Below are positions 6,924-48,829 of a stretch of DNA of 64,000 nt, piece after piece. A model generated the notes under the pieces. The model had not been told where the DNA came from. It saw nothing but the letters and a program-made list of their open reading frames with translations, and did no database searches. The position numbers were made by a program, and so were the translations under genes. The stretch's first letter is position 1. The number at the start of each line of letters is the position of its first letter. The stretch is from the NCBI RefSeq assembly GCF_057098645.1, contig NZ_CM169472.1; one strand, 5' to 3'.

Positions 6924-8087
6924 TTACTTTTGATTGTCGATTCTGGTGAGAGCAACCAGGAATGCCAGTGTATAACACACCGTAATTGCCAGACTCATTT
7001 TTAACAGTGTTTCTCCGCCAAATCCCGACAATGGCGCGGCTATACCGCCGAAGACAAACATGCTCATCCCCATCAACGCAGACGCCGTTCCAGATTCCTG
7101 TGTCCCTACTGCACTCATAGCCTCTGCCCCGCCAACAGTGCCGATGCCGCTACAAAATGCAATAGTGAAAAATAATGCCACCAGTGCCGGAATGGGCAAT
7201 TGTGTCCATGCGCATAAGACCGTGAGCAATGCACACAAAATTGCCGCTATCAGGCCACCTCGCAACAATGTCATCGCATTAATCCGTCGCGCCAGACGCG
7301 AAAAGATCCATGAAGCAATGATAAGTCCGATGCCGTTAAGGCCAAACACCAGGCTAAATTGCATTGGACTAAAGCCAAATTCCTTCTGCAACACGAACGA
7401 CGAAGAGCCGATATACGCAAACAAGCCTGCCAGCATAAAACTTTGAATCAGGCAAAAGCGCATAAAACGGCGGTTCTGCACCACGCTTCGTCCGGTTAAT
7501 AGCAATGATGAGCCCCTTTTATTTTCTGGCAAGGTCTCATTAATAAATAACACGCAGCCCAGCAACAATACGGCGCTAATTTCAGCCATTACCCAGAATA
7601 AAGTGCGCCAGTCAAAAGTGCTAACAATGTACCCGCCCAGCACTGGCGACAACACCGGTGCCAGGCCATTCACCGTCATTAACAGCGCAAAAAACTGGGT
7701 CAACGTTACTCCCTGATATTTGTCACGAGCAATAGAACGAGAGAGCACCGAACCACCCGCCCCCGCGATCCCTTGAATAAAACGCCAGACCACCAGCCAG
7801 TAAATATTGTTCGTTGTCGCGCACAAAATGGAAGAAACAATAAACAATAGCAACGACAAGATTAACGGACGTTTACGCCCTATTTTGTCGCTCAGAGGGC
7901 CAAATAACAGTTGTCCGACGCCAAGACCGATCAGTGATGCAGTCAGCGTTAATTGCGTTATGGTCGTGGTTGCCGCCAGTTGCTCAGACATCTCCGGCAA
8001 AGCCGGCAAATAAAGATCGGTACACATCGGGCCGATACCGGCTAAAAGACCAAGAATCAATGCCCATGAAAGAGAGACTCTAGCCAT
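6924..8087 (-). CDS. MFS transporter, Bcr/CflA-like drug-efflux subfamily
   Basis: 387 aa, about 12 predicted TM helices; N-terminal DLYLPALP-type motif; 9 bp downstream of the OMF gene on the same strand. Confidence 0.75.
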   Translation of the reverse strand: MARVSLSWALILGLLAGIGPMCTDLYLPALPEMSEQLAATTTITQLTLTASLIGLGVGQLLFGPLSDKIGRKRPLILSLLLFIVSSILCATTNNIYWLVVWRFIQGIAGAGGSVLSRSIARDKYQGVTLTQFFALLMTVNGLAPVLSPVLGGYIVSTFDWRTLFWVMAEISAVLLLGCVLFINETLPENKRGSSLLLTGRSVVQNRRFMRFCLIQSFMLAGLFAYIGSSSFVLQKEFGFSPMQFSLVFGLNGIGLIIASWIFSRLARRINAMTLLRGGLIAAILCALLTVLCAWTQLPIPALVALFFTIAFCSGIGTVGGAEAMSAVGTQESGTASALMGMSMFVFGGIAAPLSGFGGETLLKMSLAITVCYTLAFLVALTRIDNQK

Positions 8088-8095
8088 ATTATTCC

Positions 8096-9469
8096 TTACT
8101 TGAGTGATGACATGCCGCCGCCCAGCGACTGCCAGAGCGTGATTCGGTTTGTAAAATCAGTCAGTTGCAGTGCCAGTAGCTCCTGCTGTGCGCTCCACAA
8201 GCTGCGCTGCGCCGTCAACACGGTCAGGTAATCACCAACACCCGTCTGATAGCGACGCAAGCCAACATCGACCGTTTGTTGCTCAGCTTTAACATACTGG
8301 CGCTGTGCATCCAGTTGCTCTTCAAGCGTGGTCCGCCGCGCCAGTGCGTTAGCGACATCTTTAAATGCGCTCTGAACGGTTTTTTCATAGGTGGCAATGA
8401 GTCCACGCTTTTGTGCTTCTGCGTAACGAAGCTGCGCCAGATTACTTCCGCCAGTGAACAGCGGTAATGTGACCGATGGCGTAAATGACCAGATCTGCAT
8501 TCCGTGGCTGAACAACGACGACAATGCGTCACTGCCAACACCAGCGCTGGCAGTCAGCGAAATCGTCGGGAAAAAGTTAGCCCGCGCCGCGCCAATATCG
8601 GCATTGGCGCTCTTCAAATTATGTTCCGCTTCCTGGATATCCGGGCGACGCAGCAGAACGTCAGATGACACTCCCGCAGGAACCAGACTTATCATCTGTT
8701 CCGGCAGGCTTTCCAGTGTTCCCGGTAGCAAATTTTCCTCAAGCGTTGTACCTGCCAGTAAGTTCAGCGCATTTTTATCCTGCATCACTTGTGTCTGATA
8801 GCTGGCAACGCTGGCGCGCGCTTGCTGATAAACACTCATCGCCTCACTGACATCTGTCGCTGCCGCCGTGCCAACCTGTTGCTGGCGCTGGATAATTTTC
8901 AATGAGTTTTCTGCACTGGTCATCGTTTCTTTTGCCAGGGCCAGGTTGCTGTTATCGGCCGCCAGTGTCAGCCAGGCGGTGCTGATTTCAGCAATCAGCG
9001 TTAAACGGGTGTTCTGGGCTGTAAATTCACTGGCAAGCCAGGTTTCTCGCGCCGCCCGAGATAAACTCTGATTACGACCAAACAGATCTAACGTAAAACT
9101 GGACACCGTGCCGTCAGCCTCGGCAGTGGTTTCCGTACCATTCGCCAGCGAACGACTGCGGGTTGAACTTAAGGCCGCATTCACCGTCGGGAATAACGAC
9201 GCATTAGTTTGCCCATAGAGCGCCCGTGCTGAGTCAATATCAGCAATCGCTTTTTGCACATCGCGGTTACTGTTCAGTGCAATAGTCACCACCTGCTGCA
9301 ATCGGGGATCGTGGATCACCTGCTGCCAGTCATGGCTGATTGCCTTTCCCTGGCCCTGTGCTCCCGGCAAGGTCGCCGGGATTGGGGATTCAGGCGTGCT
9401 GTAGTGGGGATCGAGCGAGACACATCCCGCACTCAACAGCACCAGAAAAATAAGAGAACGACGCAACAT
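8096..9469 (-). CDS. outer-membrane efflux lipoprotein (NodT/OprM-type OMF)
   Basis: 457 aa; lipobox LSAGC near N-terminus; coiled-coil rich; follows the RND gene with a 4 bp gap. Confidence 0.8.
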   Translation of the reverse strand: MLRRSLIFLVLLSAGCVSLDPHYSTPESPIPATLPGAQGQGKAISHDWQQVIHDPRLQQVVTIALNSNRDVQKAIADIDSARALYGQTNASLFPTVNAALSSTRSRSLANGTETTAEADGTVSSFTLDLFGRNQSLSRAARETWLASEFTAQNTRLTLIAEISTAWLTLAADNSNLALAKETMTSAENSLKIIQRQQQVGTAAATDVSEAMSVYQQARASVASYQTQVMQDKNALNLLAGTTLEENLLPGTLESLPEQMISLVPAGVSSDVLLRRPDIQEAEHNLKSANADIGAARANFFPTISLTASAGVGSDALSSLFSHGMQIWSFTPSVTLPLFTGGSNLAQLRYAEAQKRGLIATYEKTVQSAFKDVANALARRTTLEEQLDAQRQYVKAEQQTVDVGLRRYQTGVGDYLTVLTAQRSLWSAQQELLALQLTDFTNRITLWQSLGGGMSSLK

Positions 9470-9472
9470 AAC

Positions 9473-12400
9473 TTACTCCTGACGGCGCGGTTTACCGGCA
9501 AACAAACGTTTCACCAGTACAAAAAACAGAGGAACAAAGAAAATAGCCAGCAACGTAGCGGTCAGCGTACCGCCAATAATGCCCGTACCAATGGCGATGC
9601 GGCTGTTCGCCCCTGCGCCGGTTGCTATCGCCAGCGGCATTACCCCCGCAATAAACGCCAGCGAGGTCAAGATGATTGGGCGTAAACGAGTCTGCGCCGC
9701 GCGTAATGCCGCACGACTCAAGGAATAACCCTCTGCAACCGCCGCTTCAGCAAATTCCACAATCAGAATGGCGTTTTTCGACGACAAGCCGATAGTGGTT
9801 AATAGCGCCACCTGGAAGTAAACATCGTTGTTTAAATCACGCATCCAGGCCGCCAGCGCCGCGCCAAGAAGCCCCAGAGGGATCACCAGAATGACCGAGA
9901 ACGGGACTGACCAGCTTTCGTACAGTGCTGCAAGGCAGAGGAAAACCACCAGAATAGAAACTGCATACAGACTCAATGCCTGACCGCTGGCCAGTTTCTC
10001 CTGCAATGACAAACCACTCCAGGCCCAGGTTGTTCCCGCAGGAAGACTGTTTGCCAGTTCCTCCATTTTTGTCATTGCATCGCCGGAACTAAAGCCAGTC
10101 GCATTTTCCCCCTGAATTTCATAGGCTGCAGAACCGTTGTAGCGCACCAGTCTTTCCGGTCCATACAGCCAGCGGGTGGTCGCAAAAGCAGAGAATGGTG
10201 TCATGGCGTTATCGCTACCGCGCACACACCATTTACCTAAGTCTGACGGCGCGGAACGAAATTCACTGTCGCCCTGAATGTAGACTTTTTTCACACGACC
10301 ACGGTCAATAAAGTCATTCACATAAGTACCGCCCCACGCACTGGACAGGGTGTCGGTGACATCATTCAAACTCAACCCTAATGACACCGCTTTATTACTA
10401 TCAATATCTACCTGCAATTGCGGCATTTGTGGCAAATCATTGGCACGAACAGAATGTAACTCCGGACTTTGATTCGCTTTTTCTATCAACTGATTACGCA
10501 TTTGCAGTAGTGTTTCGCGATCGGTTCCACCGTTAGCTAACAATTCAAACGTAAAACCATTGCTTTGCCCCAGCCCATCAACGGCTGGCGGCGTCATCGC
10601 AAATACCGTGGCATCACGAATTGTGCCCAGCTCTTTGGTTGCCCGTAGGGCGATAGCCTGGGCGGTGTTTTCTGCCCCTTTACGTTGAGACCAGTTTTTC
10701 AACGAAACAAACGCCATCCCGGTGTTCTGTCCGCTGCCGCTAAAACTGAAACCATCAACGGTAAAAATGACATCGGTATTTGCTTTCTCGTTAATCAGGA
10801 ACCAGTCAACAATCTGGCGATTCACTTCTGCTGTACGGGCAGCGGTCGCCCCGGCCGGCAGCGTGTACTGCACCATGATTTCGCCCTGGTCTTCAGTGGG
10901 TAAGAAACTGCCCGGCAGTTTCCACATCATCAGGGCCATTCCACCACCCAGTACGAGATAAAGCCCCATCGTTCGAGCAGCACGGCGCAGGACATAAATT
11001 ACGCCTCGCTGATATTTATCTTCAGTACGGCGGTAAAAGCGGTTAAATGCGCCGAAAAAGCCTTTTTTATGTGGCGGAACATGCTGGAGGACGGAACCGC
11101 ACAGGGCGGGAGTCAAGGTCAATGCCACCACCACGGAAAGCAGCATTGCGGAGATAATGGTTATCGAAAACTGACGATAAATTACCCCCGTAGATCCCCC
11201 AAAGAAGGCCATAGGCAGGAATACGGCTGACAACACCAGCGCAATGGCAACCAGTGCGCCAGAAATCTCGCCCATTGATTTTTCCGTGGCTTCACGCGCG
11301 GGCAACCCTTCGTCACGCATAATGCGTTCGACGTTCTCCACTACCACAATGGCATCGTCCACCAGCAAGCCGATCGCCAGCACCATTGCAAACAACGTCA
11401 GGGTATTAATCGAATAGCCAAACAACGCAAGAACGCCGAATGTGCCCAGCAAAACGACGGGGACAGCTAACCCCGGAATCAGTGTGGCACGCAGGTTTTG
11501 CAGGAATAAATACATCACGCAAACCACCAATACGATGGCTTCAAACAGCGTCTGAATTACGTCCTCTACAGAGATTTTAATAAATTCAGTGCTGTCTTTC
11601 GGGTAAGCGATGTCGTATCCCTGCGGCATGTTCCGCTGGAATTCGGCAATCTTATCCTTGACCAGCGTCGCCGTATTCAGCGCATTCGCACCGGGCGAAA
11701 GCATTACAGCAACCCCGGCAGACGGGTGACCGTTAAGTTTGCCGATAGCGGTATAATCTTCACTGCCCATCTCAACGCGAGCCACATCTTTTATACGAAC
11801 AACTGCGCCGTCTGACTGGCTTTTCACGATAATATTTTTGAACTGATCCACCGTCTGCAAGCGAGACTGCGCACGTACCGTTGCGGTCAGTTGCTGAGTA
11901 TTCGGTGAAGGCAATGCCCCTATTTTCCCGGCAGTAACCTGCACGTTTTGCGCTTCAATAGCACTTTGCACGTCTGAAGGCATTAGCGAGTAAGACGCCA
12001 GTTTGGCCGGGTCAAGCCAGATGCGCATAGCGTATTCCGCGCCAAAGACTTGCAGACTCCCCACACCTTCAACACGCGCCAGCGGGTCCTGAACGTTACT
12101 AACCAACCAGTCGGCGATATCCGAACTAGAGGCTTTGTCAGTGGTGTCATACACGGCAGCAATCAGCAAAAAGTTGCTTTGTGATTTCTCCACCGTAACA
12201 CCCGTTTGCTGCACTTCGCTAGGTAGGCGCGACTCCGCCTGCTGAATTTTATTCTGCACCTGAACCTGTGCAGTATCTGGATCGGTACCTTGTTCAAAGG
12301 TCACATTAATACTGACCGAACCATCAGAGCTGCTGGTTGAGCTGAAATAGAGTAAATTATCAAGCCCAGTGAGTTGTTGCTCGATAACCTGAGTCACGCT

Positions 12401-12580
12401 GTTCTCCAGCGTTTCGGCAGAAGCACCAGTATAAGTGGCTGAAATTTTAATGGTCGGTGGCGCAACGTCAGGATATTGCGCGACGGGCAATGTGCGAATA
12501 GCCAGAATCCCCGCCAACATAATCAAAATGGCGATAACCCAGGCAAAGACCGGGCGGCGAACAAAAAAGCGCGAAAACAT
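9473..12580 (-). CDS. RND (HAE1-type) inner-membrane efflux pump
   Basis: 1035 aa; AcrB-like N-terminus MFSRFFVRRPVFAWVIAILIML; two large periplasmic loops and 12 TM pattern. Confidence 0.9.
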   Translation of the reverse strand: MFSRFFVRRPVFAWVIAILIMLAGILAIRTLPVAQYPDVAPPTIKISATYTGASAETLENSVTQVIEQQLTGLDNLLYFSSTSSSDGSVSINVTFEQGTDPDTAQVQVQNKIQQAESRLPSEVQQTGVTVEKSQSNFLLIAAVYDTTDKASSSDIADWLVSNVQDPLARVEGVGSLQVFGAEYAMRIWLDPAKLASYSLMPSDVQSAIEAQNVQVTAGKIGALPSPNTQQLTATVRAQSRLQTVDQFKNIIVKSQSDGAVVRIKDVARVEMGSEDYTAIGKLNGHPSAGVAVMLSPGANALNTATLVKDKIAEFQRNMPQGYDIAYPKDSTEFIKISVEDVIQTLFEAIVLVVCVMYLFLQNLRATLIPGLAVPVVLLGTFGVLALFGYSINTLTLFAMVLAIGLLVDDAIVVVENVERIMRDEGLPAREATEKSMGEISGALVAIALVLSAVFLPMAFFGGSTGVIYRQFSITIISAMLLSVVVALTLTPALCGSVLQHVPPHKKGFFGAFNRFYRRTEDKYQRGVIYVLRRAARTMGLYLVLGGGMALMMWKLPGSFLPTEDQGEIMVQYTLPAGATAARTAEVNRQIVDWFLINEKANTDVIFTVDGFSFSGSGQNTGMAFVSLKNWSQRKGAENTAQAIALRATKELGTIRDATVFAMTPPAVDGLGQSNGFTFELLANGGTDRETLLQMRNQLIEKANQSPELHSVRANDLPQMPQLQVDIDSNKAVSLGLSLNDVTDTLSSAWGGTYVNDFIDRGRVKKVYIQGDSEFRSAPSDLGKWCVRGSDNAMTPFSAFATTRWLYGPERLVRYNGSAAYEIQGENATGFSSGDAMTKMEELANSLPAGTTWAWSGLSLQEKLASGQALSLYAVSILVVFLCLAALYESWSVPFSVILVIPLGLLGAALAAWMRDLNNDVYFQVALLTTIGLSSKNAILIVEFAEAAVAEGYSLSRAALRAAQTRLRPIILTSLAFIAGVMPLAIATGAGANSRIAIGTGIIGGTLTATLLAIFFVPLFFVLVKRLFAGKPRRQE

Positions 12581-13701
12581 CAGGCGTTGCCTCCATTAGC
12601 CTGAACTTCAACAGCCTTGACCGTCTGCCCTGAAGTGACTTTGGCAGAACCTTCAACAATCAGTCGGTCGCCGTTGTGCAGGCCGTTTAGCACCAGCCAT
12701 TTATCACCATATGTTTCTCCCGTTTCGAGCGTTCGCTGCTCTACTTTATTGTCTTTATTCACCACCAGCGCAGTTGCATTGCCTTTAGCATCGCGCGTGA
12801 CGCCCTGTTGCGGCGCGAGAATAGCGTCTTCCATCACGCCTTCATCGACACGAGCGCCAACAAACATTCCCGGTAATAACTGCTGTTGTGGATTGGGGAA
12901 AATCGCCCGTAATGTCACCGAACCGGTAGACTCATCTACAGCGACTTCGGTGAGTTCCAGACGCCCTTTTTCGCTGTAGGTTGTGCCATCTTCCAGAATA
13001 AGTGAGACGCTCATGGTGTCACTGTTGGTCGCCAGTGACTGTTTACGCAGACGTAATAAATCGACACTGGAGCGAGTGAGGTCGACATACATTGTATCCA
13101 GACCACGAATAGTCGTTAACGCTGTATCTTGCGACGCGGTCACCAGTGCGCCAGGGGTTACCGACGAAATGCCAATGCGCCCTGAAATCGGTGCGGTTAC
13201 CGTGGTCCAGTCAAGATTAATGCGCGCAGTTTCCAGTGCGGCTTTTTTCGCCTCTACACTGGCTTTATCTTGTGCACAGGTAGACTGAGCATCATCAGCA
13301 TCCTGTTGTGAAACACCGTTCTCTTTCACCAGTCGGGCATAACGCTGCGCTTTCTGGCAATCGGCTTTTACCAGTGCCTGTGCTTGTTGTAATGCAGCCC
13401 GAGCTTCATTCCATGCAGCCTGATAACTGGCCGCATCAATCTGGTAGAGCGGCTGTCCAGCCTTGACCAGATCACCTTCCTTAAATAAGCGTTTCTGGAT
13501 AATTCCCCCAACCTGCGGACGTACTTCGGCACTGAGCGCAGCACTGGTGCGTCCGGTTAATTCACTGACTACCGAGACCGGTTGAGATTTGACTGTAACA
13601 ACGCCGACTTCTGTTTCTGACGGGGATGAATTGTCACTTTGCGTATTATCACAACCAGATAAGAGCAGCATTGCCACTACAGATGTTGCTATATACTTCA
13701 T
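12580..13701 (-). CDS. RND periplasmic adaptor (membrane fusion protein), lipoprotein
   Basis: start chosen at MKYIATS (lipobox LLSGC) preceded by GGAG; biotinyl-lipoyl/beta-barrel MFP-like translation; stop overlaps RND start. Confidence 0.8.
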   Translation of the reverse strand: MKYIATSVVAMLLLSGCDNTQSDNSSPSETEVGVVTVKSQPVSVVSELTGRTSAALSAEVRPQVGGIIQKRLFKEGDLVKAGQPLYQIDAASYQAAWNEARAALQQAQALVKADCQKAQRYARLVKENGVSQQDADDAQSTCAQDKASVEAKKAALETARINLDWTTVTAPISGRIGISSVTPGALVTASQDTALTTIRGLDTMYVDLTRSSVDLLRLRKQSLATNSDTMSVSLILEDGTTYSEKGRLELTEVAVDESTGSVTLRAIFPNPQQQLLPGMFVGARVDEGVMEDAILAPQQGVTRDAKGNATALVVNKDNKVEQRTLETGETYGDKWLVLNGLHNGDRLIVEGSAKVTSGQTVKAVEVQANGGNA

Positions 13702-13849
13702 TATTTTCTCCAGGGTGAGAAATACCCTCCTCATTAAAATCAATGAGGATATATCAGGGATATTCAGTTATAACGAACCCGCATCGCGAAATGAATTTCG
13801 CAATGAAATAAGGGGGATTAATATCCCCCGCTATTGGTTAATTCTGTTC

Positions 13850-14416
13850 TTATTTATTTATCAACATACTAACAATATCCTGATATATTTCCTGCAGATG
13901 TTGTGGATCGCTTTTTTGCGGTGTTAAACGACGATAAACCGTACCTTCCATCATGGTAGCAAACACTTCAACGCAGCAACGAATGTGCTCGTCGCTAAGA
14001 TGGGGATGCATTCTTTTCATATGTGCACAACCGTTAGCGAACATTCTGGCGTCAGCTTCTTCAAGCATTGCCATAACCCGCGGGTTGCGTGTGGCTTCTG
14101 CAGCCACTTCCAGCATCAGCGCGTCGTCGTCCTCATTTAAGGATTTACGCAAGGCAAGGACTTCCGGGAAGTGATCGGTACGCGCGTCAATGTCCATTTG
14201 GGCAATACGAAAGTCGATGATACGGCGAACCATCTCTTCAATAATGGCGTCTTTGTTGGCGAAGTAACGATATATCTGACCCACGCTAAGCTGAGCTTCG
14301 CTGGCAATTTGCGACATACTGGCGGCATGAAACCCGCAGCGACGAAAACACCGACGGGCGGCGTTAATGATTTCATCCTGACGCTGTTTGTGGCGTATCT
14401 CCAGCTTGCTGGTCAT
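13850..14416 (-). CDS. TetR-family transcriptional regulator
   Basis: N-terminal HTH (AARRCFRRCGFHAASMSQIASEAQLSVGQIYRYF); start chosen at MTSKLE preceded by AGGAGA; a longer ORF to 14515 is possible. Confidence 0.75.
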   Translation of the reverse strand: MTSKLEIRHKQRQDEIINAARRCFRRCGFHAASMSQIASEAQLSVGQIYRYFANKDAIIEEMVRRIIDFRIAQMDIDARTDHFPEVLALRKSLNEDDDALMLEVAAEATRNPRVMAMLEEADARMFANGCAHMKRMHPHLSDEHIRCCVEVFATMMEGTVYRRLTPQKSDPQHLQEIYQDIVSMLINK

Positions 14417-14893
14417 TTCTGTCTCCTGGCCTATCACTTGGTGAGAATGATCGTTCTCATTTTTGCTGATTATACGTTTCTCCAAAGTAATGGAAAGTAT
14501 TTTTATCTTATTCATGGTGCATATTCTGATAATGAAGAGATTGTGGAGATTCTGTGAAGATAGTTGACAATATTAAGTTGGGGTCAATTCATCAGAAAGG
14601 CTGCTACTTGTTGTCGCCAGTTCTGTTTTCATCATCAAACTTATCGGAGCTAATACGAATAGTTTCATAGTCAGATTCTATAAGATATTTCCCCAACCTA
14701 CCCCTTGCAGGCGTCAAGAGTAGATAACGCAAAATGCTCTGTACCGCAGCTTCTCTCCGGTACAGAAAGCGCAACTATAGCCACCCACAGCCAGGTTGAT
14801 TATAATAACCGTTTATCTGTTCGTACTGTTTACTAAAACGACGAATCGCCTGATTTTCAGGCACAACAAGCATCAACAATAAGGATTAAAGCT

Positions 14894-36819: not shown

Positions 36820-37578
36820 ATGCATTACCAGCCAAAACAAGATTTACTCAATGATCGCATTATCCTGGTGACGGGAGCCAGTGATGGTATTGGTCGTGAA
36901 GCCGCGATGACGTATGCACGCTATGGTGCGACAGTGATTCTGTTGGGCCGTAATGAAGAAAAATTACGTCAGGTAGCCAGCCACATAAACGAAGAAACTG
37001 GGCGTCAGCCACAGTGGTTTATTCTCGATTTGCTGACCTGCAGGTCCGAAGATTGCCAACAACTGGCACAGCGCATTGCCGTTAATTATCCGCGTCTGGA
37101 TGGTGTTTTGCATAATGCCGGATTGCTCGGCGATGTTTGTCCAATGAGCGAACAAAATCCACAGGTCTGGCAGGACGTCATACAGGTCAACGTTAATGCC
37201 ACCTTTATGCTCACCCAGGCACTGCTTCCTTTATTACTCAAATCGGACGCCGGTTCACTGGTCTTTACTTCATCAAGCGTTGGACGTCAGGGACGAGCCA
37301 ACTGGGGCGCATATGCAGCGTCGAAATTTGCCACCGAAGGGATGATGCAGGTACTGGCCGATGAATATCAGCAGCGCCTGCGCGTCAACTGCATTAACCC
37401 AGGCGGTACGCGCACCGCAATGCGTGCCAGCGCCTTCCCGACCGAAGATCCACAGAAACTTAAAACACCCGCTGATATCATGCCGCTCTACCTCTGGCTG
37501 ATGGGCGATGACAGCCGCCGTAAAACCGGCATGACCTTTGACGCCCAACCGGGCCGTAAACCAGGAATTTCCCAATGA
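36820..37578 (+). CDS. yciK: short-chain dehydrogenase/reductase
   Basis: 252 aa; TGASDGIG Rossmann motif, YxxxK. Confidence 0.9.
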   Translation: MHYQPKQDLLNDRIILVTGASDGIGREAAMTYARYGATVILLGRNEEKLRQVASHINEETGRQPQWFILDLLTCRSEDCQQLAQRIAVNYPRLDGVLHNAGLLGDVCPMSEQNPQVWQDVIQVNVNATFMLTQALLPLLLKSDAGSLVFTSSSVGRQGRANWGAYAASKFATEGMMQVLADEYQQRLRVNCINPGGTRTAMRASAFPTEDPQKLKTPADIMPLYLWLMGDDSRRKTGMTFDAQPGRKPGISQ

Positions 37579-38165
37579 GTGATGAACGCTACCAACAGCG
37601 TCAGCAGCGAGTGAAAGAAAAAGTAGATGCTCGTGTGGCCCAGGCCCAGGATGAACGCGGTATTATCATCGTCTTTACCGGCAATGGAAAAGGCAAAACC
37701 ACCGCGGCATTTGGTACGGCAACACGCGCAGTTGGTCACGGAAAAAAAGTGGGCGTCGTGCAGTTTATTAAAGGCACCTGGCCTAATGGCGAACGCAATC
37801 TGCTGGAGCCACATGGCGTTGAGTTTCAGGTGATGGCAACGGGCTTTACCTGGGATACACAAAACCGCGAGTCTGATACCGCCGCCTGCCGCGAAGTCTG
37901 GCAACATGCAAAGCGGATGCTTGCTGATTCCTCACTGGATATGGTTTTGCTTGATGAGCTGACTTATATGGTGGCGTATGACTATTTGCCACTGGAGGAA
38001 GTGGTGCAGGCGTTAAATGAACGTCCACATCAACAGACGGTGATTATCACGGGTCGAGGCTGTCATCGGGATATTCTTGAACTGGCGGATACGGTGAGTG
38101 AGTTGCGCCCCATCAAACATGCGTTTGATGCCGGTGTAAAAGCGCAGATAGGGATCGATTATTAA
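37575..38165 (+). CDS. btuR: cob(I)yrinic acid a,c-diamide (cobalamin) adenosyltransferase
   Basis: 196 aa; P-loop GNGKGKTTAA; start overlaps yciK stop. Confidence 0.9.
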   Translation: MSDERYQQRQQRVKEKVDARVAQAQDERGIIIVFTGNGKGKTTAAFGTATRAVGHGKKVGVVQFIKGTWPNGERNLLEPHGVEFQVMATGFTWDTQNRESDTAACREVWQHAKRMLADSSLDMVLLDELTYMVAYDYLPLEEVVQALNERPHQQTVIITGRGCHRDILELADTVSELRPIKHAFDAGVKAQIGIDY

Positions 38166-38171
38166 TCTGTA

Positions 38172-38200
38172 AAAATGCCGGATATGACGTCCGGCATACT
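38172..38200. terminator. hairpin between convergent btuR and rluB
   Basis: atgccgga tatgacg tccggcat. Confidence 0.6.
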
Positions 38201-38204
38201 TTGA

Positions 38205-39080
38205 TTAACCGTTATTATTACGTCCGCCAGAACGACGACCGCCGCTCATCTGACTGTGACGTTTCACCGCACGACGAATCTGATTCGCCTTCATGCGACG
38301 ACGGTCTTTTTCTACAGCGACTTTAGAGCTGGTTTCTGGCGGTAGCTCCACCAGTTCGCGCAGATAGTTAGTCTGGGCGAGGTCCAGCTCCGTCCAGCCA
38401 CCGCGTGGCAGACCTTTTGGCAGTGGGATATCACCGTAACGAACACGGATCAGGCGGCTCACCTGCACACCAACCGCTTCCCACAGACGACGAACTTCAC
38501 GGTTACGGCCTTCGGTCAGAGTCACGTTGTACCACTGGTTGATCCCTTCGCCGCCGCTGAACTTGATGGTTTTAAAAGCTGCCGGACCATCTTCCAACTG
38601 CACGCCACGACTCAAATCACGCAGTTTCGCGTCGTCAACCTGACCAAATACACGCACGGCATATTCACGTTCAACTTCACGGCTTGGGTGCATTAAACGG
38701 TTTGCCAGTTCACCATCGGTGGTGAACAGCAGCAGACCACAGGTATTAACGTCCAAGCGACCCACGGCAATCCAGCGTGCGCCACGCAGTTTTGGCAGAC
38801 GGTCAAACACCGTTGGACGTCCTTCCGGATCGTTACGGGTACACAACTCACCTTCCGGTTTGTAATAGGCCAGAACGCGACAAATTTGTTCAGCGGACTC
38901 ACGTACCGAAATCAGGTGACCATCGATACGGATTTTCAATCCAGGGGTAACTTCAACACGATCGCCGAGTTTAGCAATTTTGCCATCAACACTCACACGA
39001 CCGGCTTCAATAATAGATTCGATTTCACGGCGAGAACCGTGGCCGGCACGCGCCAGCACTTTCTGTAGCTTTTCGCTCAT
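38205..39080 (-). CDS. rluB: 23S rRNA pseudouridine synthase B
   Basis: 291 aa; S4 domain plus RsuA-type catalytic domain; Arg/Gly-rich tail. Confidence 0.9.
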
Positions 39081-40011
39081 AGAGCTTCCTTTTGGTGTCG
39101 CCTTCCCAGGCGTCTGATATGCTTTTGTGCAACAGTGAGTCAGAACTTACATCTGACTCACTGATAGTAAAGTCTGTTTGAACTCTTCAGGCCTTAAGTA
39201 AACGACTCGACGTTTTAACTGGCCTGGCTTTGAGGCGCAACATACTACACTATCTTTATGGTTAAAGCTTGTTTCGATTAACATCAGCTTAATTACCAGC
39301 CACCACCGCCTCCGCCACCCGCGCCGCCAGCACCACCACCGGAATAACTTCGCCCCAACAAACTGGTATTGGCCCCCAGACTCAGGTGCATCTGTAATGA
39401 GAACAAAACGCCACTACGGGCAATTTCCGGGGCACTAACAGCCGCTGTGAGTGATGGGGTGATACGTGCGACCCATTCTCTTCCAAGGTTTGCTGAGACT
39501 GCCCAACCTAGCAACGCGTAATCCAGTTTCCGTGTTTCCCCTTTCCGCCGCCGCCCACTGTGTGTTGCTGCCTCTTTACGCGCAAGATAGTTAACGATAG
39601 CTTCACCGTGGGCATAACGTTGCTGCCCAGTTTGGGTAAACTTTGGCAGAAAAATATACCCCATACCAGTGAGATAACCGGTCAGGAAAACAGCGCTAAA
39701 ATAACCCGCTGGCATATACCAGTAAAAGAATACATCTCCGACATTGATATAGAGAGAATAAAAGGCCACGCCTGAACAAATCAGCGGTAAAAACAAAGTG
39801 ATGATGGCACGATTAACGCAAGGCTTGTCATCATCGCGGGCAAACAAAAGCTCAAGGGAACAAAATAAAAAAGGAAGAAGCCAGCAGATCATAATAAACA
39901 TATCGCCCACCAGACTCATTCCTGCCCAGCCTACAGGACTCAGGTTACCGTAAAGAATGAACCGCCCCGGGAATCCTGGAGACTAAACTCCCTGAGAAAG
40001 AGGTAAACAGG

Positions 40012-40338
40012 ATGACTAAAAATACACGTTTTTCCCCCGAGGTCCGTCAACGGGCAGTTCGTATGGTTCTGGAAAGTCAGGGCGAATATGACTCACAATG
40101 GGCGGCAATTTGTTCCATTGCCCCAAAGATTGGCTGTACACCAGAGACTCTGCGTGTGTGGGTTCGTCAGCATGAGCGGGATACCGGGAGTGGTGATGGT
40201 GGACTCACCACCGCTGAACGTCAGCGTCTGAAAGAGCTGGAACGTGAAAATCGTGAACTGCGCCGCAGTAACGATATCCTTCGCCAGGCTTCCGCTTATT
40301 TTGCGAAGGCGGAGTTCGACCGCCTCTGGAAAAAATAA
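40012..40338 (+). CDS. IS629 OrfA (HTH transposase subunit)
   Basis: 108 aa [19 protein letters not shown]..., leucine zipper C-terminus. Confidence 0.9.
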
Positions 40339-41225
40339 TGCCGCTGCTGGATAAGCTGCGTGAGCAGTACGGGGTCGGACCGGTATGCAGTGAACTGCAT
40401 ATTGCCCCGTCAACGTATTACCACTGTCAGCAACAGCGACATCATCCTGATAAACGCAGTGCCCGTGCTCAGCGCGATGACTGGCTGAAGAGAGAGATAC
40501 AGCGCGTATACGATGAAAATCACAAGGTATACGGTGTGCGTAAAGTCTGGCGTCAGTTGTTACGGGAAGGTATCAGAGTGGCCAGATGCACTGTGGCACG
40601 TCTCATGGCGGTTATGGGACTTGCCGGTGTTCTCCGGGGTAAAAAGGTCCGTACTACCGTCAGCCGGAAAGCCGTTTCCGCAGGCGACCGCGTAAACCGT
40701 CAGTTCGTGGCAGAACGTCCTGACCAGCTGTGGGTGGCTGATTTTACTTACGTCAGCACATGGCAGGGCTTCGTCTATGTGGCGTTCATCATTGATGTGT
40801 TTGCCGGATGTATCGTGGGGTGGCGAGTCTCATCGTCTATGGAAACGACATTCGTGCTGGATGCACTGGAGCAGGCGTTGTGGGCCCGTCGGCCGTCCGG
40901 CACAGTCCATCACAGTGATAAAGGTTCTCAGTATGTATCACTGGCCTATACGGAGCGACTAAAAGAAGCAAAACTGCTGGCATCAACAGGGAGTACAGGT
41001 GACTCGTATGACAACGCGATGGCGGAGAGCATCAATGGTCTTTACAAAGCGGAGGTAATACACCGTAAGAGCTGGAAAAACCGTGCAGAAGTGGAACTGG
41101 CCACACTCACGTGGGTGGACTGGTATAACAATCGACGATTGCTGGGAAGGCTGGGTCATATCCCTCCGGCAGAAGCAGAAAAAGCTTATTATGCTTCCAT
41201 CAGAAACGATGATCTGGCAGCCTGA
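40338..41225 (+). CDS. IS629 OrfB (DDE integrase-like catalytic subunit)
   Basis: 295 aa in the overlapping frame; rve/DDE domain. Confidence 0.9.
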   Translation: MPLLDKLREQYGVGPVCSELHIAPSTYYHCQQQRHHPDKRSARAQRDDWLKREIQRVYDENHKVYGVRKVWRQLLREGIRVARCTVARLMAVMGLAGVLRGKKVRTTVSRKAVSAGDRVNRQFVAERPDQLWVADFTYVSTWQGFVYVAFIIDVFAGCIVGWRVSSSMETTFVLDALEQALWARRPSGTVHHSDKGSQYVSLAYTERLKEAKLLASTGSTGDSYDNAMAESINGLYKAEVIHRKSWKNRAEVELATLTWVDWYNNRRLLGRLGHIPPAEAEKAYYASIRNDDLAA

Positions 41226-42525
41226 GTTCACAGATAAAACACTCTCCAGGAAAACCGGGGCGGTTCAGAATGACCGCCAATATTGCCAGTCCACCCCATT
41301 GCAAAAACGTATCAGGCCGGTAAAACGAAGACTGTTTACGCGGCAGATAAAATTTCTGCATCCGTAAAAATGCCCTGCGTAAGACTCTGTTGCGTCTCCC
41401 CGTAAGAACGACCTTATCGCCTTTACGAAATAACGCTTCCAGTAATAACTGTTCTGCGGGCAGTAATACCGCATTATTTCTGGTCACGCCTTCATTAACA
41501 CGAATCAGGATTTGCTGGTTCTTGTCAGACTGATCTTCCAGATGAATTTTTCCTTTCACAATCAGATTTACGATATCGGCACAAAAACCTTTATCGTCGT
41601 AAACCAGCTTCGCATCGAGACGTAACATGCCGGGCGTGTAATCTGGCGGAATGACATCGGTTTCAATCACATCTACCGGCGTAAATTGCGGCCTGCGCTT
41701 CCAGAGATATAACCATCCACAAACCAGGAATAGACACGGAAACCAAATTAACAACGATGACGTGGAGGGTAAAAGAAGATGGCTGAAAATATTCGTCGTT
41801 TGTGGAGTCGGGGCATTGCTAAGTAACGAGTGAGGCCAACGGTAGAGTACCGTAAAATCTTCACGATAAAACGGATCGCTGGATTCAATTCTTCCGTCCT
41901 CAAGGATGCGGCCATTTCGATATGTGTCGCCCTCTTCTCCAGTAAAGAGATCGATTTCGCTAAATGGATTACCCGCGATATCAGGGAACTTGAGTGAAAA
42001 TCGGGTCTTATAGATTTCAAACGGCCAGTGGTTACCAGTCACGTTCCAGATTAACAGATCTGAATCTCCCTCACGCAGGAAAGCATTTTTAACCTGATAA
42101 TGAATTTGATAATGATAGTCGCCTTGAGGCAAGAAACGTTGTTTATCGCCCACGACAATACTCATTAACCCGATATGCCAGTCATGATGCCAGGGTTCAG
42201 GAATACCATCACGGGTGACGCCAACAATATGATAGTTCAGCAGTGTAGCGTCCCCATCAGGCTGCATCCAGAGTCGTGGTAAATCACGATAAAAGCCGTG
42301 CTTAATCTGCTGATTTCGCGCCTGAAAATGAATATTTTCTTTGATGTCGAACACCCCATCCGGTTGCAGAGTGGCTTCAACATCAAAGAGCGAGATCCCT
42401 TCTTCATAAGAAGGGATCTCCGTGTTTTCTGCATAACTTAGAGATGATACAAACAGCCCTGCTATCAACAGCAAAATGCAGCGAAACTTCCCTGCCATAG
42501 TCTTCCATCCGTGGAACGCAATTTA

Positions 42526-43146
42526 TTATAAGAAAGGCTTCACATCACCTACGCCTTCACGCACCACGACCGGCGTATCATCGGTAAGATCAATAACCGT
42601 TGTTGGTTTCTGCCCGAGATAGCCGCCGTGAATAATCAAATCTACCTGTTTTTCCAGACGGTCTTTAATTTCTTCGGGATCGGATTCGGTAAATTCGCTG
42701 CCTGGCAGCATTAGCGAAGTGGAAAGCATCGGTTCGCCCAGTGCTTCAAGCAAAGCCTGCGCAATTGGGTTAGAAGGCACACGCATACCGATGGTTTTGC
42801 GTTTTTCCTGCAACAGACGGCGCGGCACTTCCTTCGTCCCCTTCAGGATGAAGGTATAGTTGCCCGGCGTGTTGTTTTTCATTAAACGAAACGCAACGTT
42901 ATCGACAAATGAATAGGTCGAGAGTTCAGAAAGATCGCGACACATCAGGGTAAAGTTGTGACCGTCCGGCAGCTGGCGAATACGACAAATACGCTCCATG
43001 GCGTTTTTATCTTCAATTTTACAGCCGAGCGCATAGCCGGAATCAGTTGGATAAACAATCACCCCGCCTTTACGCACGATCTCCACCGCCTGGTTGATCA
43101 AACGTTGCTGTGGGTTATCAGGATGAATATAAAAAAACTGGCTCAT
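42526..43146 (-). CDS. yciO: Sua5/YciO/YrdC-family protein
   Basis: start set at MSQFFYIHPDNPQQR (206 aa) with GAGGGA RBS; overlaps trpH stop. Confidence 0.85.
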   Translation of the reverse strand: MSQFFYIHPDNPQQRLINQAVEIVRKGGVIVYPTDSGYALGCKIEDKNAMERICRIRQLPDGHNFTLMCRDLSELSTYSFVDNVAFRLMKNNTPGNYTFILKGTKEVPRRLLQEKRKTIGMRVPSNPIAQALLEALGEPMLSTSLMLPGSEFTESDPEEIKDRLEKQVDLIIHGGYLGQKPTTVIDLTDDTPVVVREGVGDVKPFL

Positions 43147-44024
43147 AATTCCCTCTCTGTGGTGTTCTGCGGCTGTTCCCATAGCTGCCAGACGCCTTCA
43201 ACGCCTGCGGGCAGCCAGAGTTTACGACCCAGTTCGATCCACGGGCATGGCTGATGAAAATCAGATCCTTGTGATGCCCATAAATGATGCTGACGCGCAA
43301 GTGTCGCCAGCTGGGTGCGTTCATTGGGCGATTGCTGGCACTGCGCGACTTCCATCGCGTCGCCGTCGTGTTCGGCAAAATGCGCAACCAATCTTTTCAG
43401 CCATTTAGCACTAAGATTGTACCGCCCAGGATGAGCTAGCACCACCTTACCGCCAGAATGATGAATGACATCAATAGCTTGTTCTATTGTACACCACTGT
43501 GGCGGAACGTATCCGGTTTTCCCGCGCGCCAGATACTTTTTAAAGACATCCGCCATTGAACTGGCTTTGCCGCACTCAACAAGGAAACGCGCAAAATGAC
43601 CGCGCGTCACTGCGCCGCCCTGCGCCAGTCGTTGTGCGCCTTCCAGCGCCCCAGGTATTTGCGCTTTTTCAAGTCTTTCGGCAATTTGCTGCGCCCGCTG
43701 ATTGCGCCGTTCTGTCTGCTGCGCGAGGAACTCACACATTAGCGGATGAGTAATATCAATATTCAGCCCGACAATATGAATTTCATGATTTTCCCAGACC
43801 GTGGAAATTTCCACGCCGGGAATAAGATTCAGCGCCAGTCCCGAACGTGAAATTTCCTCTCTTGCTGGCGCGATTGCAGCTGTGGTGTCATGGTCGGTGA
43901 TCGCCAGGGTGCCGACGCGCATCTCGACTGCACGGTGCACCAATGCTTCTGGCGTCAGGCAGCCATCGGAAGCTGTGGTATGGCTGTGCAGGTCGTAAAT
44001 CACTGCGTAATTCGTGTCGCTCAA
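43143..44024 (-). CDS. trpH: PHP-domain 3',5'-nucleotide bisphosphate/RNA 5' phosphatase
   Basis: 293 aa; PHP histidine motifs (DLHSHT...); divergent from the trp promoter. Confidence 0.85.
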   Translation of the reverse strand: MSDTNYAVIYDLHSHTTASDGCLTPEALVHRAVEMRVGTLAITDHDTTAAIAPAREEISRSGLALNLIPGVEISTVWENHEIHIVGLNIDITHPLMCEFLAQQTERRNQRAQQIAERLEKAQIPGALEGAQRLAQGGAVTRGHFARFLVECGKASSMADVFKKYLARGKTGYVPPQWCTIEQAIDVIHHSGGKVVLAHPGRYNLSAKWLKRLVAHFAEHDGDAMEVAQCQQSPNERTQLATLARQHHLWASQGSDFHQPCPWIELGRKLWLPAGVEGVWQLWEQPQNTTEREL

Positions 44025-44099
44025 GGCGCACTCCCGTTCTGGATAATGTTTTTTGCGCCGACATCATAACGGTTCTGGCAAATATTCTGAAATGAGCTG

Positions 44100-44136
44100 T
44101 TGACAATTAATCATCGAACTAGTTAACTAGTACGCA
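44100..44136 (+). promoter_or_regulatory. trp promoter with TrpR operator
   Basis: TTGACA (44100-44105), 17 bp spacer, TTAACT (44123-44128); operator palindrome cgaactagttaactagtacg overlaps the -10. Confidence 0.9.
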
Positions 44137-44162
44137 AGTTCACGTAAATAAGGGTATCGACA

Positions 44163-44207
44163 ATGAAAGCAATTTTCGTACTGAAAGCTTGGTGGCGCAC
44201 TTCCTGA
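44163..44207 (+). CDS. trpL: trp operon leader peptide
   Basis: 14-codon ORF [14 protein letters not shown] with tandem Trp codons. Confidence 0.9.
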   Translation: [14 protein letters not shown]

Positions 44208-44249
44208 AACGGGCAGTGTATTCACCATGCGTAAAGCAATCAGATACCC

Positions 44250-44278
44250 AGCCCGCCTAATGAGCGGGCTTTTTTTTG
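44250..44278 (+). terminator. trp attenuator (3:4 terminator hairpin)
   Basis: agcccgcctaatgagcgggct followed by tttttttt, about 20 nt before trpE. Confidence 0.9.
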
Positions 44279-44298
44279 AACAAAATTAGAGAATAACA

Positions 44299-45861
44299 AT
44301 GCAAACACAAAAACCGACTCTCGAACTGCTAACCTGCGAAGGCGCTTATCGCGACAATCCCACCGCGCTTTTTCACCAATTGTGTGGGGATCGTCCGGCA
44401 ACGCTGCTGCTGGAATCCGCAGATATCGACAGCAAAGATGATTTAAAAAGCCTGCTGCTGGTAGACAGTGCGCTACGCATTACAGCTTTAGGTGACACTG
44501 TCACAATCCAGTCCCTTTCCGGCAACGGCGAAGCCCTGCTGACACTACTGGATAACGCCCTGCCTGCGGGTGTGGAAAATGAACAATTACCAAACTGCCG
44601 TGTGCTGCGCTTCCCCCCTGTTAGTCCACTGCTGGATGAAGACGCTCGCTTATGCTCCCTTTCGGTTTTTGACGCTTTCCGCTTATTGCTGAATCTGTTG
44701 AATGTACCTAAGGAAGAACGAGAAGCCATGTTCTTCGGCGGCCTGTTCTCTTATGACCTTGTGGCGGGGTTTGAAGATTTACCGCAACTGTCAGCGGAAA
44801 ATAACTGCCCTGATTTCTGTTTTTATCTCGCTGAAACGCTGATGGTGATTGACCATCAGAAAAAAAGCACCCGCATTCAGGCCAGCCTGTTTGCTCCGAA
44901 TGAAGAAGAAAAACAACGTCTCACTGCTCGCCTGAACGATCTTCGCCAGCAACTGACCGAAACCGCGCCACCGCTGCCGGTGGTTTCCGTGCCGCATATG
45001 CGTTGTGAATGTAACCAGAGCGATGAAGAGTTCGGTGGCGTAGTGCGTTTGTTGCAAAAAGCGATTCGCGCCGGAGAAATTTTCCAGGTGGTGCCATCTC
45101 GCCGTTTCTCTCTGCCCTGCCCGTCACCGCTGGCGGCCTATTACGTGCTGAAAAAGAGTAATCCCAGCCCGTACATGTTTTTTATGCAGGATAATGATTT
45201 CACCCTGTTTGGCGCGTCGCCGGAAAGTTCGCTCAAGTATGACGCCACCAGCCGCCAGATTGAGATCTACCCGATTGCCGGAACACGTCCACGCGGTCGT
45301 CGTGCCGATGGTTCACTGGACAGAGACCTCGACCACCGCATCGAACTGGAAATGCGTACCGATCATAAAGAGCTTTCTGAACATCTGATGTTGGTGGATC
45401 TCGCCCGTAATGACCTGGCACGCATTTGCACCCCCGGCAGCCGCTACGTCGCCGACCTCACCAAAGTTGACCGTTACTCTTACGTGATGCATCTGGTCTC
45501 CCGCGTGGTCGGTGAGCTGCGCCACGATCTCGACGCCCTGCACGCTTACCGCGCCTGTATGAATATGGGGACGTTAAGCGGTGCGCCGAAAGTGCGTGCT
45601 ATGCAGTTAATTGCCGAGGCGGAAGGTCGTCGCCGCGGCAGCTACGGCGGCGCGGTAGGTTATTTCACCGCGCATGGCGATCTCGACACCTGCATTGTGA
45701 TCCGCTCGGCGCTGGTGGAAAACGGTATCGCCACCGTGCAAGCCGGTGCTGGCGTAGTCCTTGATTCTGTTCCGCAGTCGGAAGCCGACGAAACCCGTAA
45801 TAAAGCCCGCGCTGTACTGCGCGCTATTGCCACCGCGCATCATGCACAGGAGACTTTCTGA
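44299..45861 (+). CDS. trpE: anthranilate synthase component I
   Basis: 520 aa; chorismate-binding domain. Confidence 0.95.
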
Positions 45862-47456
45862 TGGCTGATATTCTGCTGCTCGATAATATCGACTCTTTTA
45901 CGTACAACCTGGCAGATCAGTTGCGCAGCAATGGGCATAACGTGGTGATTTACCGCAACCATATCCCGGCGCAAACCTTAATTGCACGCCTGGCGACGAT
46001 GAGCAATCCGGTACTGATGCTTTCTCCTGGCCCCGGTGTGCCGAGCGAAGCCGGTTGTATGCCGGAACTCCTCACCCGCTTGCGTGGCAAGCTGCCCATT
46101 ATTGGCATTTGCCTCGGACATCAGGCGATTGTCGAAGCTTACGGGGGCTATGTCGGTCAGGCGGGCGAAATTCTCCACGGTAAAGCGTCGAGCATTGAAC
46201 ATGACGGTCAGGCGATGTTTGCCGGATTAACAAACCCGCTGCCGGTGGCGCGTTATCACTCGCTGGTTGGCAGTAACATTCCGGCCGGTTTAACCATCAA
46301 CGCCCATTTTAATGGCATGGTGATGGCAGTACGTCACGATGCGGATCGCGTTTGTGGATTCCAATTCCATCCGGAATCCATTCTTACTACCCAGGGAGCT
46401 CGCCTGCTGGAACAAACGCTGGCCTGGGCGCAGCAGAAGCTAGAGCCAGCCAACACGCTGCAACCGATTCTGGAAAAACTGTATCAGGCGCAGACGCTTA
46501 GCCAACAAGAAAGTCACCAGCTGTTTTCAGCGGTGGTGCGTGGCGAGCTGAAGCCGGAACAACTGGCGGCGGCGCTGGTGAGCATGAAAATTCGCGGTGA
46601 GCACCCGAACGAGATCGCTGGGGCAGCAACCGCGCTACTGGAAAACGCAGCGCCGTTCCCGCGCCCGGATTATCTGTTTGCTGATATCGTCGGTACTGGC
46701 GGTGACGGCAGCAACAGTATCAATATTTCCACCGCCAGTGCGTTTGTCGCCGCGGCCTGTGGGCTGAAAGTGGCGAAACACGGCAACCGTAGCGTCTCCA
46801 GTAAATCTGGTTCGTCGGATCTGCTGGCGGCGTTCGGTATTAATCTTGATATGAACGCCGATAAATCGCGCCAGGCGCTGGATGAGTTAGGTGTTTGTTT
46901 CCTCTTTGCGCCGAAGTATCACACCGGATTCCGCCACGCGATGCCGGTTCGCCAGCAACTGAAAACCCGCACCCTGTTCAATGTGCTGGGGCCATTGATT
47001 AACCCGGCGCATCCGCCGCTGGCGTTAATTGGTGTTTATAGTCCGGAACTGGTGCTGCCGATTGCCGAAACCTTGCGCGTGCTGGGGTATCAACGCGCGG
47101 CGGTGGTGCACAGCGGCGGGATGGATGAAGTTTCATTACACGCGCCGACAATCGTTGCCGAGCTGCATGACGGCGAAATTAAGAGCTATCAATTGACCGC
47201 TGAAGATTTTGGCCTGACGCCCTACCACCAGGAGCAACTGGCAGGCGGAACACCGGAAGAAAACCGTGACATTTTAACACGCTTGTTACAAGGTAAAGGC
47301 GACGCCGCCCATGAAGCAGCCGTCGCGGCGAATGTCGCCATGTTAATGCGCCTGCATGGCCATGAAGATCTGCAAGCCAATGCGCAAACCGTTCTTGAGG
47401 TACTGCGCAGTGGTTCCGCTTACGACAGAGTAACCGCACTGGCGGCACGAGGGTAA
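45861..47456 (+). CDS. trpD: anthranilate synthase component II / anthranilate phosphoribosyltransferase (bifunctional)
   Basis: 531 aa; N-terminal glutamine amidotransferase (GICLGHQ) fused to TrpD; start overlaps trpE stop. Confidence 0.95.
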
Positions 47457-48818
47457 ATGATGCAAACCGTTTTAGCGAAAATCGTCGCAGACAAGGCGAT
47501 TTGGGTAGAAGCCCGCAAACAGCAGCAACCGCTGGCCAGTTTTCAGAATGAGGTTCAGCCGAGCACGCGACATTTTTATGATGCGCTACAGGGTGCGCGC
47601 ACGGCGTTTATTCTGGAGTGCAAGAAAGCGTCGCCGTCAAAAGGCGTGATCCGTGATGATTTCGATCCAGCACGCATTGCCGCCATTTATAAACATTACG
47701 CTTCGGCAATTTCGGTGCTGACTGATGAGAAATATTTTCAGGGGAGCTTTGATTTCCTCCCCATCGTCAGCCAAATCGCCCCGCAGCCGATTTTATGTAA
47801 AGACTTCATTATCGACCCTTACCAGATCTATCTGGCGCGCTATTACCAGGCCGATGCCTGCTTATTAATGCTTTCAGTACTGGATGACGACCAATATCGC
47901 CAGCTTGCAGCCGTCGCTCACAGTCTGGAGATGGGGGTGCTGACCGAAGTCAGTAATGAAGAGGAACTGGAGCGCGCCATTGCATTGGGGGCAAAGGTCG
48001 TTGGCATCAACAACCGCGATCTGCGTGATTTGTCGATTGATCTCAACCGTACCCGCGAGCTTGCGCCGAAACTGGGGCACAACGTGACGGTAATCAGCGA
48101 ATCAGGCATCAATACTTACGCTCAGGTGCGCGAGTTAAGCCACTTCGCTAACGGTTTTCTGATTGGTTCGGCGTTGATGGCCCATGACGATTTGCACGCC
48201 GCCGTGCGTCGGGTGTTGCTGGGTGAGAATAAAGTGTGTGGCCTGACGCGTGGGCAAGATGCTAAAGCAGCTTATGACGCGGGCGCGATTTACGGTGGGT
48301 TGATTTTGGTTGCGACATCACCGCGTTGCGTCAACGTTGAACAGGCGCAGGAAGTGATGGCTGCGGCACCGTTGCAGTATGTTGGCGTGTTCCGCAATCA
48401 CGATATTGCCGATGTGGTGGACAAAGCTAAGGTGTTATCGCTGGCGGCAGTGCAACTGCATGGTAATGAAGATCAGCTGTATATCGATACGCTGCGTGAA
48501 GCTCTGCCAGCACACGTTGCCATCTGGAAAGCATTAAGCGTCGGTGAAACCCTGCCCGCCCGCGAGCTTCAGCACGTTGATAAATATGTTTTAGACAACG
48601 GCCAGGGTGGAAGCGGGCAACGTTTCGACTGGTCACTGTTAAACGGTCAATCGCTTGGCAACGTTCTGCTGGCGGGGGGCTTAGGCGCAGATAACTGCGT
48701 GGAAGCGGCACAAACCGGCTGCGCCGGACTTGATTTTAATTCTGCTGTAGAGTCGCAACCGGGCATCAAAGACGCACGTCTTTTGGCCTCGGTTTTCCAG
48801 ACGCTGCGCGCATATTAA
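47457..48818 (+). CDS. trpC: indole-3-glycerol phosphate synthase / PRA isomerase (bifunctional)
   Basis: 453 aa two-domain TIM-barrel protein directly after trpD stop. Confidence 0.95.
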
Positions 48819-48829
48819 GGAAAGGAACA

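Follow-up and report, generated by a model that had tools for sequence, protein, structure and literature searches.

The window analyzed here, a 64-kb stretch of bacterial DNA, carries the gene order cobO-rluB-yciQ-yciO-rnm-trpLEDCBA. This order matches the annotated locus of Escherichia coli O145:H28, with rluB and yciO as the neighbors of yciQ and the trp operon adjacent. The yciQ gene is encoded on the minus strand and is split by an insertion sequence that is oriented on the plus strand. The features of this arrangement are as follows, with coordinates given as positions in the window.

39293..39957, minus strand: 3′ part of yciQ, comprising the last 221 codons and the stop codon, with a C-terminal hydrophobic cluster and a Gly-rich tail (comparison with strain RM12761)
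39955..39957, no strand: left copy of the target-site duplication, GAA (only one GAA at the uninterrupted site of O145:H28 RM12761)
39958..41267, plus strand: IS629 (IS3 family), complete copy of 1310 bp (end-to-end alignment to copies from O145 and O103 EHEC genomes and plasmids, 10-11 mismatches, 99.2%)
39958..39984, plus strand: IRL, the left terminal inverted repeat, which begins with TG (complementarity to the right end)
40012..40338, plus strand: orfA, 108 aa, helix-turn-helix transposase subunit (Pfam HTH_Tnp_1, E=1.4e-12)
40293..40409, plus strand: ALIL pseudoknot, an RNA structure that stimulates frameshifting in IS3-family elements (Rfam RF01497, match to the full model, positions 1-117, with 120.9 bits and a gathering score of 50)
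40338..41225, plus strand: orfB, 295 aa, DDE catalytic domain (Pfam HTH_21, rve with E=1.1e-25, and rve_3)
40523..40601, plus strand: mosaic patch of 79 bp (IS positions 566-644) with 10 substitutions relative to EHEC-type IS629 (alignment to an O145 copy)
41241..41267, plus strand: IRR, the right terminal inverted repeat, which finishes with CA (complementarity to the left end)
41268..41270, no strand: right copy of the target-site duplication, GAA (only one GAA at the uninterrupted site of O145:H28 RM12761)
41271..41278, plus strand: target sequence TGACCGCC, similar to the IS629 terminus TGAACCGCC and located 3 bp from IRR in inverted orientation
41271..42498, minus strand: 5′ part of yciQ, comprising codons 1-409 and one further base (Pfam DUF2207 N-terminal domain; comparison with RM12761)

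The element begins with TGAACCGCCCCGGG at position 39958 and its last bases, CCGGGGCGGTTCA, end at position 41267, which gives a length of exactly 1310 bp. The initial annotation, which was made from the sequence alone, had described a 1310-bp IS629 together with its target duplication at 39955-41270, and this description is correct to the base. Closer alignment, on which that annotation had staked its reading, recovered the terminal inverted repeats (TGAACC...GGTTCA), with complementarity at 13/13 of the tip bases and at 22/25 of the first bases. The GAA direct repeat that had been described at both ends is also present. In E. coli O145:H28 RM12761, the corresponding uninterrupted sequence is CGTAAAGAATGACCGCC, with only one GAA, and therefore the repeat represents a genuine target-site duplication rather than a 1-in-64 chance match.

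Members of the IS3 family are recognized by a length of approximately 1.2-1.55 kb, imperfect TG...CA inverted repeats, a short (3-5 bp) direct target duplication, and overlapping orfA (HTH) and orfB (rve) genes in a -1 frame arrangement that are linked through programmed frameshifting. Its length, its ends, and the GAA on both sides place the window element in this family. Likewise, the orfB frame is -1 relative to that of orfA (326-nt offset), and the orfB start codon overlaps the orfA stop codon (ATAATG). The complete ALIL pseudoknot predicted by Rfam spans this overlap. The sequence upstream of orfB is identical to a RefSeq sequence that is annotated as a “programmed frameshift.”

The usual isoform rule, as in ISfinder practice, treats two copies as the same element if they share more than 95% nucleotide identity. 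Alignment to a plasmid copy in AP019707.1 that is annotated as “IS629 transposase OrfA/OrfB” revealed 11 mismatches over 1310 bp (99.2%). Full-length comparisons to copies from O145 and O103 EHEC chromosomes gave 10 mismatches, and comparisons to plasmid copies gave 10-11. Copies that are named “IS629 family” in RefSeq are approximately 96.8% identical to the window element. All of these values exceed 95% and assign the element to IS629, with annotated database copies rather than the ISfinder type sequence serving as references. In the older literature, isoforms of this element appear under the names IS1203 and IS3411. By every sequence criterion given above, the element is a structurally intact IS629 of the IS3 family, and the description of the copy as intact was borne out by its inverted repeats, orfA, orfB, full-score pseudoknot, and rve domain.

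The IS629 copies of EHEC strains (O157:H7 Sakai and EDL933, O145:H28, and O103:H2) have the same 1310-bp length, ends, orfA/orfB layout, pseudoknot, and 3-bp duplication. Relative to the O145 and O103 copies, 1300 of the 1310 bases are identical in the window, and the window copy carries a 79-bp patch with 10 substitutions. OrfA has the same protein sequence as in the O145 copies, and Q63K is the one amino-acid change in OrfB. All 10 of the differences from the O145 copy fall within the patch and none occur in the remaining 1231 bp.

A second IS629 subtype, annotated in RefSeq as “IS3-like element IS629 family transposase” (for example in NZ_CP025856.1), belongs to the same family and has the same architecture. 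Many copies of this subtype show 100% identity to a 140-bp probe that spans the patch. Over 795 bp, copies of the second subtype are approximately 96.7-96.9% identical to the window copy, with 25-26 differences, none of which lie at positions 536-694. The window copy is EHEC-type everywhere except in the patch. Because all 10 differences agree with the other subtype and are packed into 79 bp, they are best attributed to one recombination event and not to accumulated mutation. The patch looks like a short gene-conversion tract between IS629 subtypes, and it does not appear to reflect the age of the copy. For the same reason, we discarded the idea that the element is a diverged, old IS copy.

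Neither the 5,426 complete E. coli genomes nor the 72,556 plasmids that were searched contain a full-length identical IS629 copy, and the best match was 99.2%. An exact-protein look-up of the OrfB variant likewise yielded no identical donor, as its only matches were GCA_001265875.1 and one ENA metagenome contig, whose IS copies agree with the window copy at just the first three of the patch positions. In GCA_001265875.1 (JHSG01000002.1, 1003-3430), a complete second-subtype IS629 lies directly beside a 5′-truncated EHEC-type IS629 in a prophage region. The EHEC-type copy in this assembly carries a shorter patch (3 of the 10 positions), and both subtypes are co-resident.

Since the copy has the parts listed above, it looks autonomous and would still be able to transpose. 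An intact-looking copy might nonetheless have lost this ability, for example if OrfB or OrfAB were impaired by the conversion patch or by Q63K. One OrfB residue does differ from the EHEC-type protein, and activity is predicted here from the sequence. However, the lysine at position 63, like each of the nine silent changes, is what the other widespread IS629 subtype normally carries, and no change affects the inverted repeats, the frameshift region, the pseudoknot, or the rve domain. We consider such a transposition defect to be improbable and favor a copy that has retained its mobility.

The insertion is antisense to yciQ and breaks the gene at codon 410. When the element and one GAA are removed, a continuous ORF of 630 aa is obtained. 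Because the duplication is 3 bp long, the frame is kept with or without the removal of one GAA copy. The rejoined protein carries both DUF2207 domains on one polypeptide (PF09972, E=7.2e-23; PF20990, E=1.1e-9), and the Pfam DUF2207_C match straddles the insertion junction. An alignment to an uninterrupted yciQ, which the initial annotation had called for, was run with the intact O145:H28 RM12761 allele (631 aa) and revealed 0 substitutions over 2087 bp and a single 3-bp indel. The annotated RM12761 YciQ protein is identical apart from one Gly. These results uphold the earlier statements that the two halves are colinear and in frame once the element is removed, and that the target encodes a DUF2207 protein. 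The indel, which corresponds to one Gly codon, is located near window position 39321, well away from the junction, where the gene encodes the Gly/Ala-rich C-terminal tail. It likely arose by replication slippage, as the tract is repetitive and rich in GCC/GGC.

In the interrupted gene, the 5′ ORF reads 23 codons into the element to yield a 432-aa ORF (41200-42498, minus strand). The break falls after a signal-like segment and a hydrophobic segment at residues 241-267, and before hydrophobic clusters at residues 418-450 and 456-482. The last 221 codons, including the predicted C-terminal transmembrane cluster, are cut off, and we conclude that this yciQ is most likely a null allele. The inactivation that the initial annotation had stated outright is therefore a probable outcome. 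Among the papers that mention yciQ in the literature searched, none reports an experimentally established function for YciQ. Engineered E. coli strains use yciQ as a site for chromosomal integration (PMC11943725), which is consistent with the gene being dispensable in culture. The loss of a conserved protein that is dispensable in this way would not be expected to cause a strong phenotype.

To establish how widely the insertion occurs, its junctions were sought in other genomes. A 400-bp probe of the left junction was not covered to 80% at a single place in any of the 5,426 RefSeq complete E. coli genomes (0/5,426). In O145 genomes, only the yciQ half of the probe matches, which corresponds to an empty site. 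In contrast to the complete genomes, exact-protein look-ups recovered the IS-yciQ fusion ORF in 4 NCBI draft contigs and the orphan 3′ ORF in 14 contigs. Both junctions are present in GCA_029357705.1, where the left-junction contig matches window positions 36293-40234 at 100% and reaches 277 bp into the element, and the right-junction contig matches window positions 41201-52498 with 2 mismatches (11.3 kb). Other carriers are GCA_032490195.1 (right junction) and the Logan assembly of run ERR12122442 (left junction). These draft contigs end inside the element, which is the expected outcome for a multi-copy repeat in short-read assemblies.

Such repeats are a frequent source of misassembly. IS629 is multi-copy in genomes of this kind, and the source genome is outside the 5,426 RefSeq complete genomes, so an artefact in which a repeat copy was misplaced into yciQ had to be weighed. 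However, independent drafts run from the unique yciQ flank into the element at the same base on both sides, and a misjoin would not yield a perfect 3-bp duplication. We therefore regard an assembly artefact as effectively refuted. Because both junctions recur in a few draft assemblies and in none of the complete genomes, the insertion is real and restricted to a small sub-clade.

The insertion is also recent. The initial annotation had proposed this from the state of the two halves and the flanking GAA repeat, and the proposal gains support from the lack of decay in either yciQ half together with the occurrence of the junction in only a handful of drafts and in none of the 5,426 complete genomes. 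An old insertion, and thus a long-standing pseudogene, might be suspected from the distance of at least 10 bases between this IS copy and every other copy searched. However, those 10 differences form one 79-bp cluster that agrees throughout with another IS629 subtype, both yciQ halves are free of substitutions relative to the intact O145:H28 allele, and the site is empty in all complete O145 genomes among the matches listed. An old origin is thus very improbable, and we retain a recent insertion as the preferred reading.

The lineage of the host was assessed from the DNA that surrounds the element. Outside the IS, window positions 15998-57936 align to O145:H28 RM12761 over approximately 40.6 kb with 11 mismatches and 6 gap openings (99.95%). 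O157:H7 genomes are approximately 98.2% identical over a 25-kb probe that includes the IS. The trp-side island is as in O145:H28, with the type III secretion system (T3SS) effector genes espM1 and nleG and the lambdoid tail gene J. These flanks identify the host as an O145:H28-like enterohaemorrhagic E. coli. The earlier suggestion that IS629 points to an EHEC O157-type or to some Shigella genomes therefore stands for EHEC but fails for O157 and Shigella. An origin from either is ruled out by the flank identities (99.95% versus 98.2%) together with espM1, nleG, and the lambdoid tail gene.

IS629 itself contributes little to this assignment. IS629-like elements (at least 80% query coverage) occur in 3,043 of the 5,426 complete E. 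coli genomes, so a single copy is a weak lineage marker. Furthermore, no second IS629 copy or long repeat of at least 200 bp is present within the 64-kb window, and the abundance of IS629 therefore cannot be judged from it. In O145:H28 and in other EHEC, the most prevalent IS is reportedly IS629 (PMC3893438).

In the IS3 family, -1 frameshifting yields the OrfAB protein, which excises the element as a circle in which the two ends are abutted. This circle integrates at a target that receives a 3-bp staggered cut, and the duplication arises when the stagger is repaired. We conclude that an IS629 copy transposed in antisense orientation into codon 410 of yciQ in the chromosome of an O145:H28-like EHEC strain, and that staggered target cleavage followed by gap repair duplicated the GAA. 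The split gene would then be expected to specify a 409-residue N-terminal fragment extended by 23 IS-encoded residues, and an orphan 3′ part with the C-terminal transmembrane cluster. YciQ function would have been lost in this event, which is recent and confined to a small sub-clade. We are highly confident in the overall explanation of an IS629 insertion into an O145:H28-like yciQ gene. The element, the duplication, the frame restoration, and the distribution are observed, and the loss of YciQ function and the continued mobility of the copy are inferred. No evidence that contradicts the structural reading was found in the sequence comparisons made. Duplications of 3-4 bp have been reported for IS629 (PMC3271280), and the IEE protein promotes IS629 excision in EHEC (PMC9943667). 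Given this excision activity, the yciQ allele could in principle revert, although an IEE gene would not be expected within the window itself.

The choice of the insertion site is a separate matter. The junction beside IRR reads GAA-TGACCGCC (41268-41278), in which the eight-base sequence is one base short of TGAACCGCC and provides an imperfect 8/9 match. Apart from the one missing base, this arrangement is that of an IRR-3 bp-IRL junction. IS911, another member of the IS3 family, can insert next to IR-like sequences, and in that system an IS3-family end likewise abuts a look-alike of the opposite end with a 3-bp spacing. By analogy, IS629 might have been drawn to a mimic of its own end in yciQ rather than landing at random. 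In the IS-free window, equally similar sites occur by chance at a rate of 2.5e-4 per position and strand, and after two ends and a few spacings are allowed, the rate is roughly 1e-3. However, this is a single 8/9 instance, and no IR-like flank was found at the three other IS629 copies examined. Moreover, an examination of 25 bp on either side of IS629 sites in four O157:H7 genomes gave no target pattern (PMC3271280). Targeting of this site is consequently unlikely. The same doubt attaches to the joint proposal that this is an IR-targeted IS629 insertion, as for IS911, made by a copy that is a gene-conversion hybrid of two co-resident subtypes. If such a hybrid origin is true, it would mark a traceable new IS629 lineage.

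Overall, the locus presents a known element, a routine event, and a non-essential target, and it is an ordinary strain-specific polymorphism. In this respect it resembles the polymorphisms exploited by IS-printing (Rump et al. 2011, PMC3271280), which also involve IS629 insertions in backbone genes with 3-4 bp duplications that vary among closely related strains. Unlike the IS-printing sites of O157:H7, the yciQ insertion occurs in an O145:H28-like host. No paper in the literature searched mentions IS629 together with yciQ. The yciQ-IS629 junction defines a small O145:H28-like sub-clade and is a possible target for PCR or in silico typing. It offers no new insight into the IS3 family, except in the event that the mosaic patch or the IR-like target is a general phenomenon.

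Several other features of the window were noted. A 1331-bp IS2 element is present at 57937-59267, and close copies are annotated in RefSeq as “IS3-like element IS2 family.” A 5-bp duplication, CTTAG, borders it on both sides (57932-57936 and 59268-59272), and nleG lies just upstream. This element is absent from O145:H28 RM12761, where the empty site has one CTTAG. Beyond it, the lambdoid prophage tail region at 59268-64000 (tip protein J, 61059-63992) is 97.3% identical to RM12761. Because the adjacent backbone is 99.95% identical, this prophage differs or has recombined relative to that of RM12761.

Between sapF and fabI, five genes on the minus strand (6924-14515) encode a TetR-family regulator, an RND adaptor, an RND permease (1035 aa), a NodT-type outer-membrane factor, and a Bcr/CflA MFS transporter. 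This efflux cluster is not known from the E. coli K-12 map at that position. Finally, two structured RNAs are located where they are expected: the enterobacterial sRNA STnc180 (Rfam, 197.6 bits) between acnA and cysB at 30231-30433 on the minus strand, and the trp operon leader (Rfam, 91.4 bits) upstream of trpE at 44184-44277 on the plus strand.
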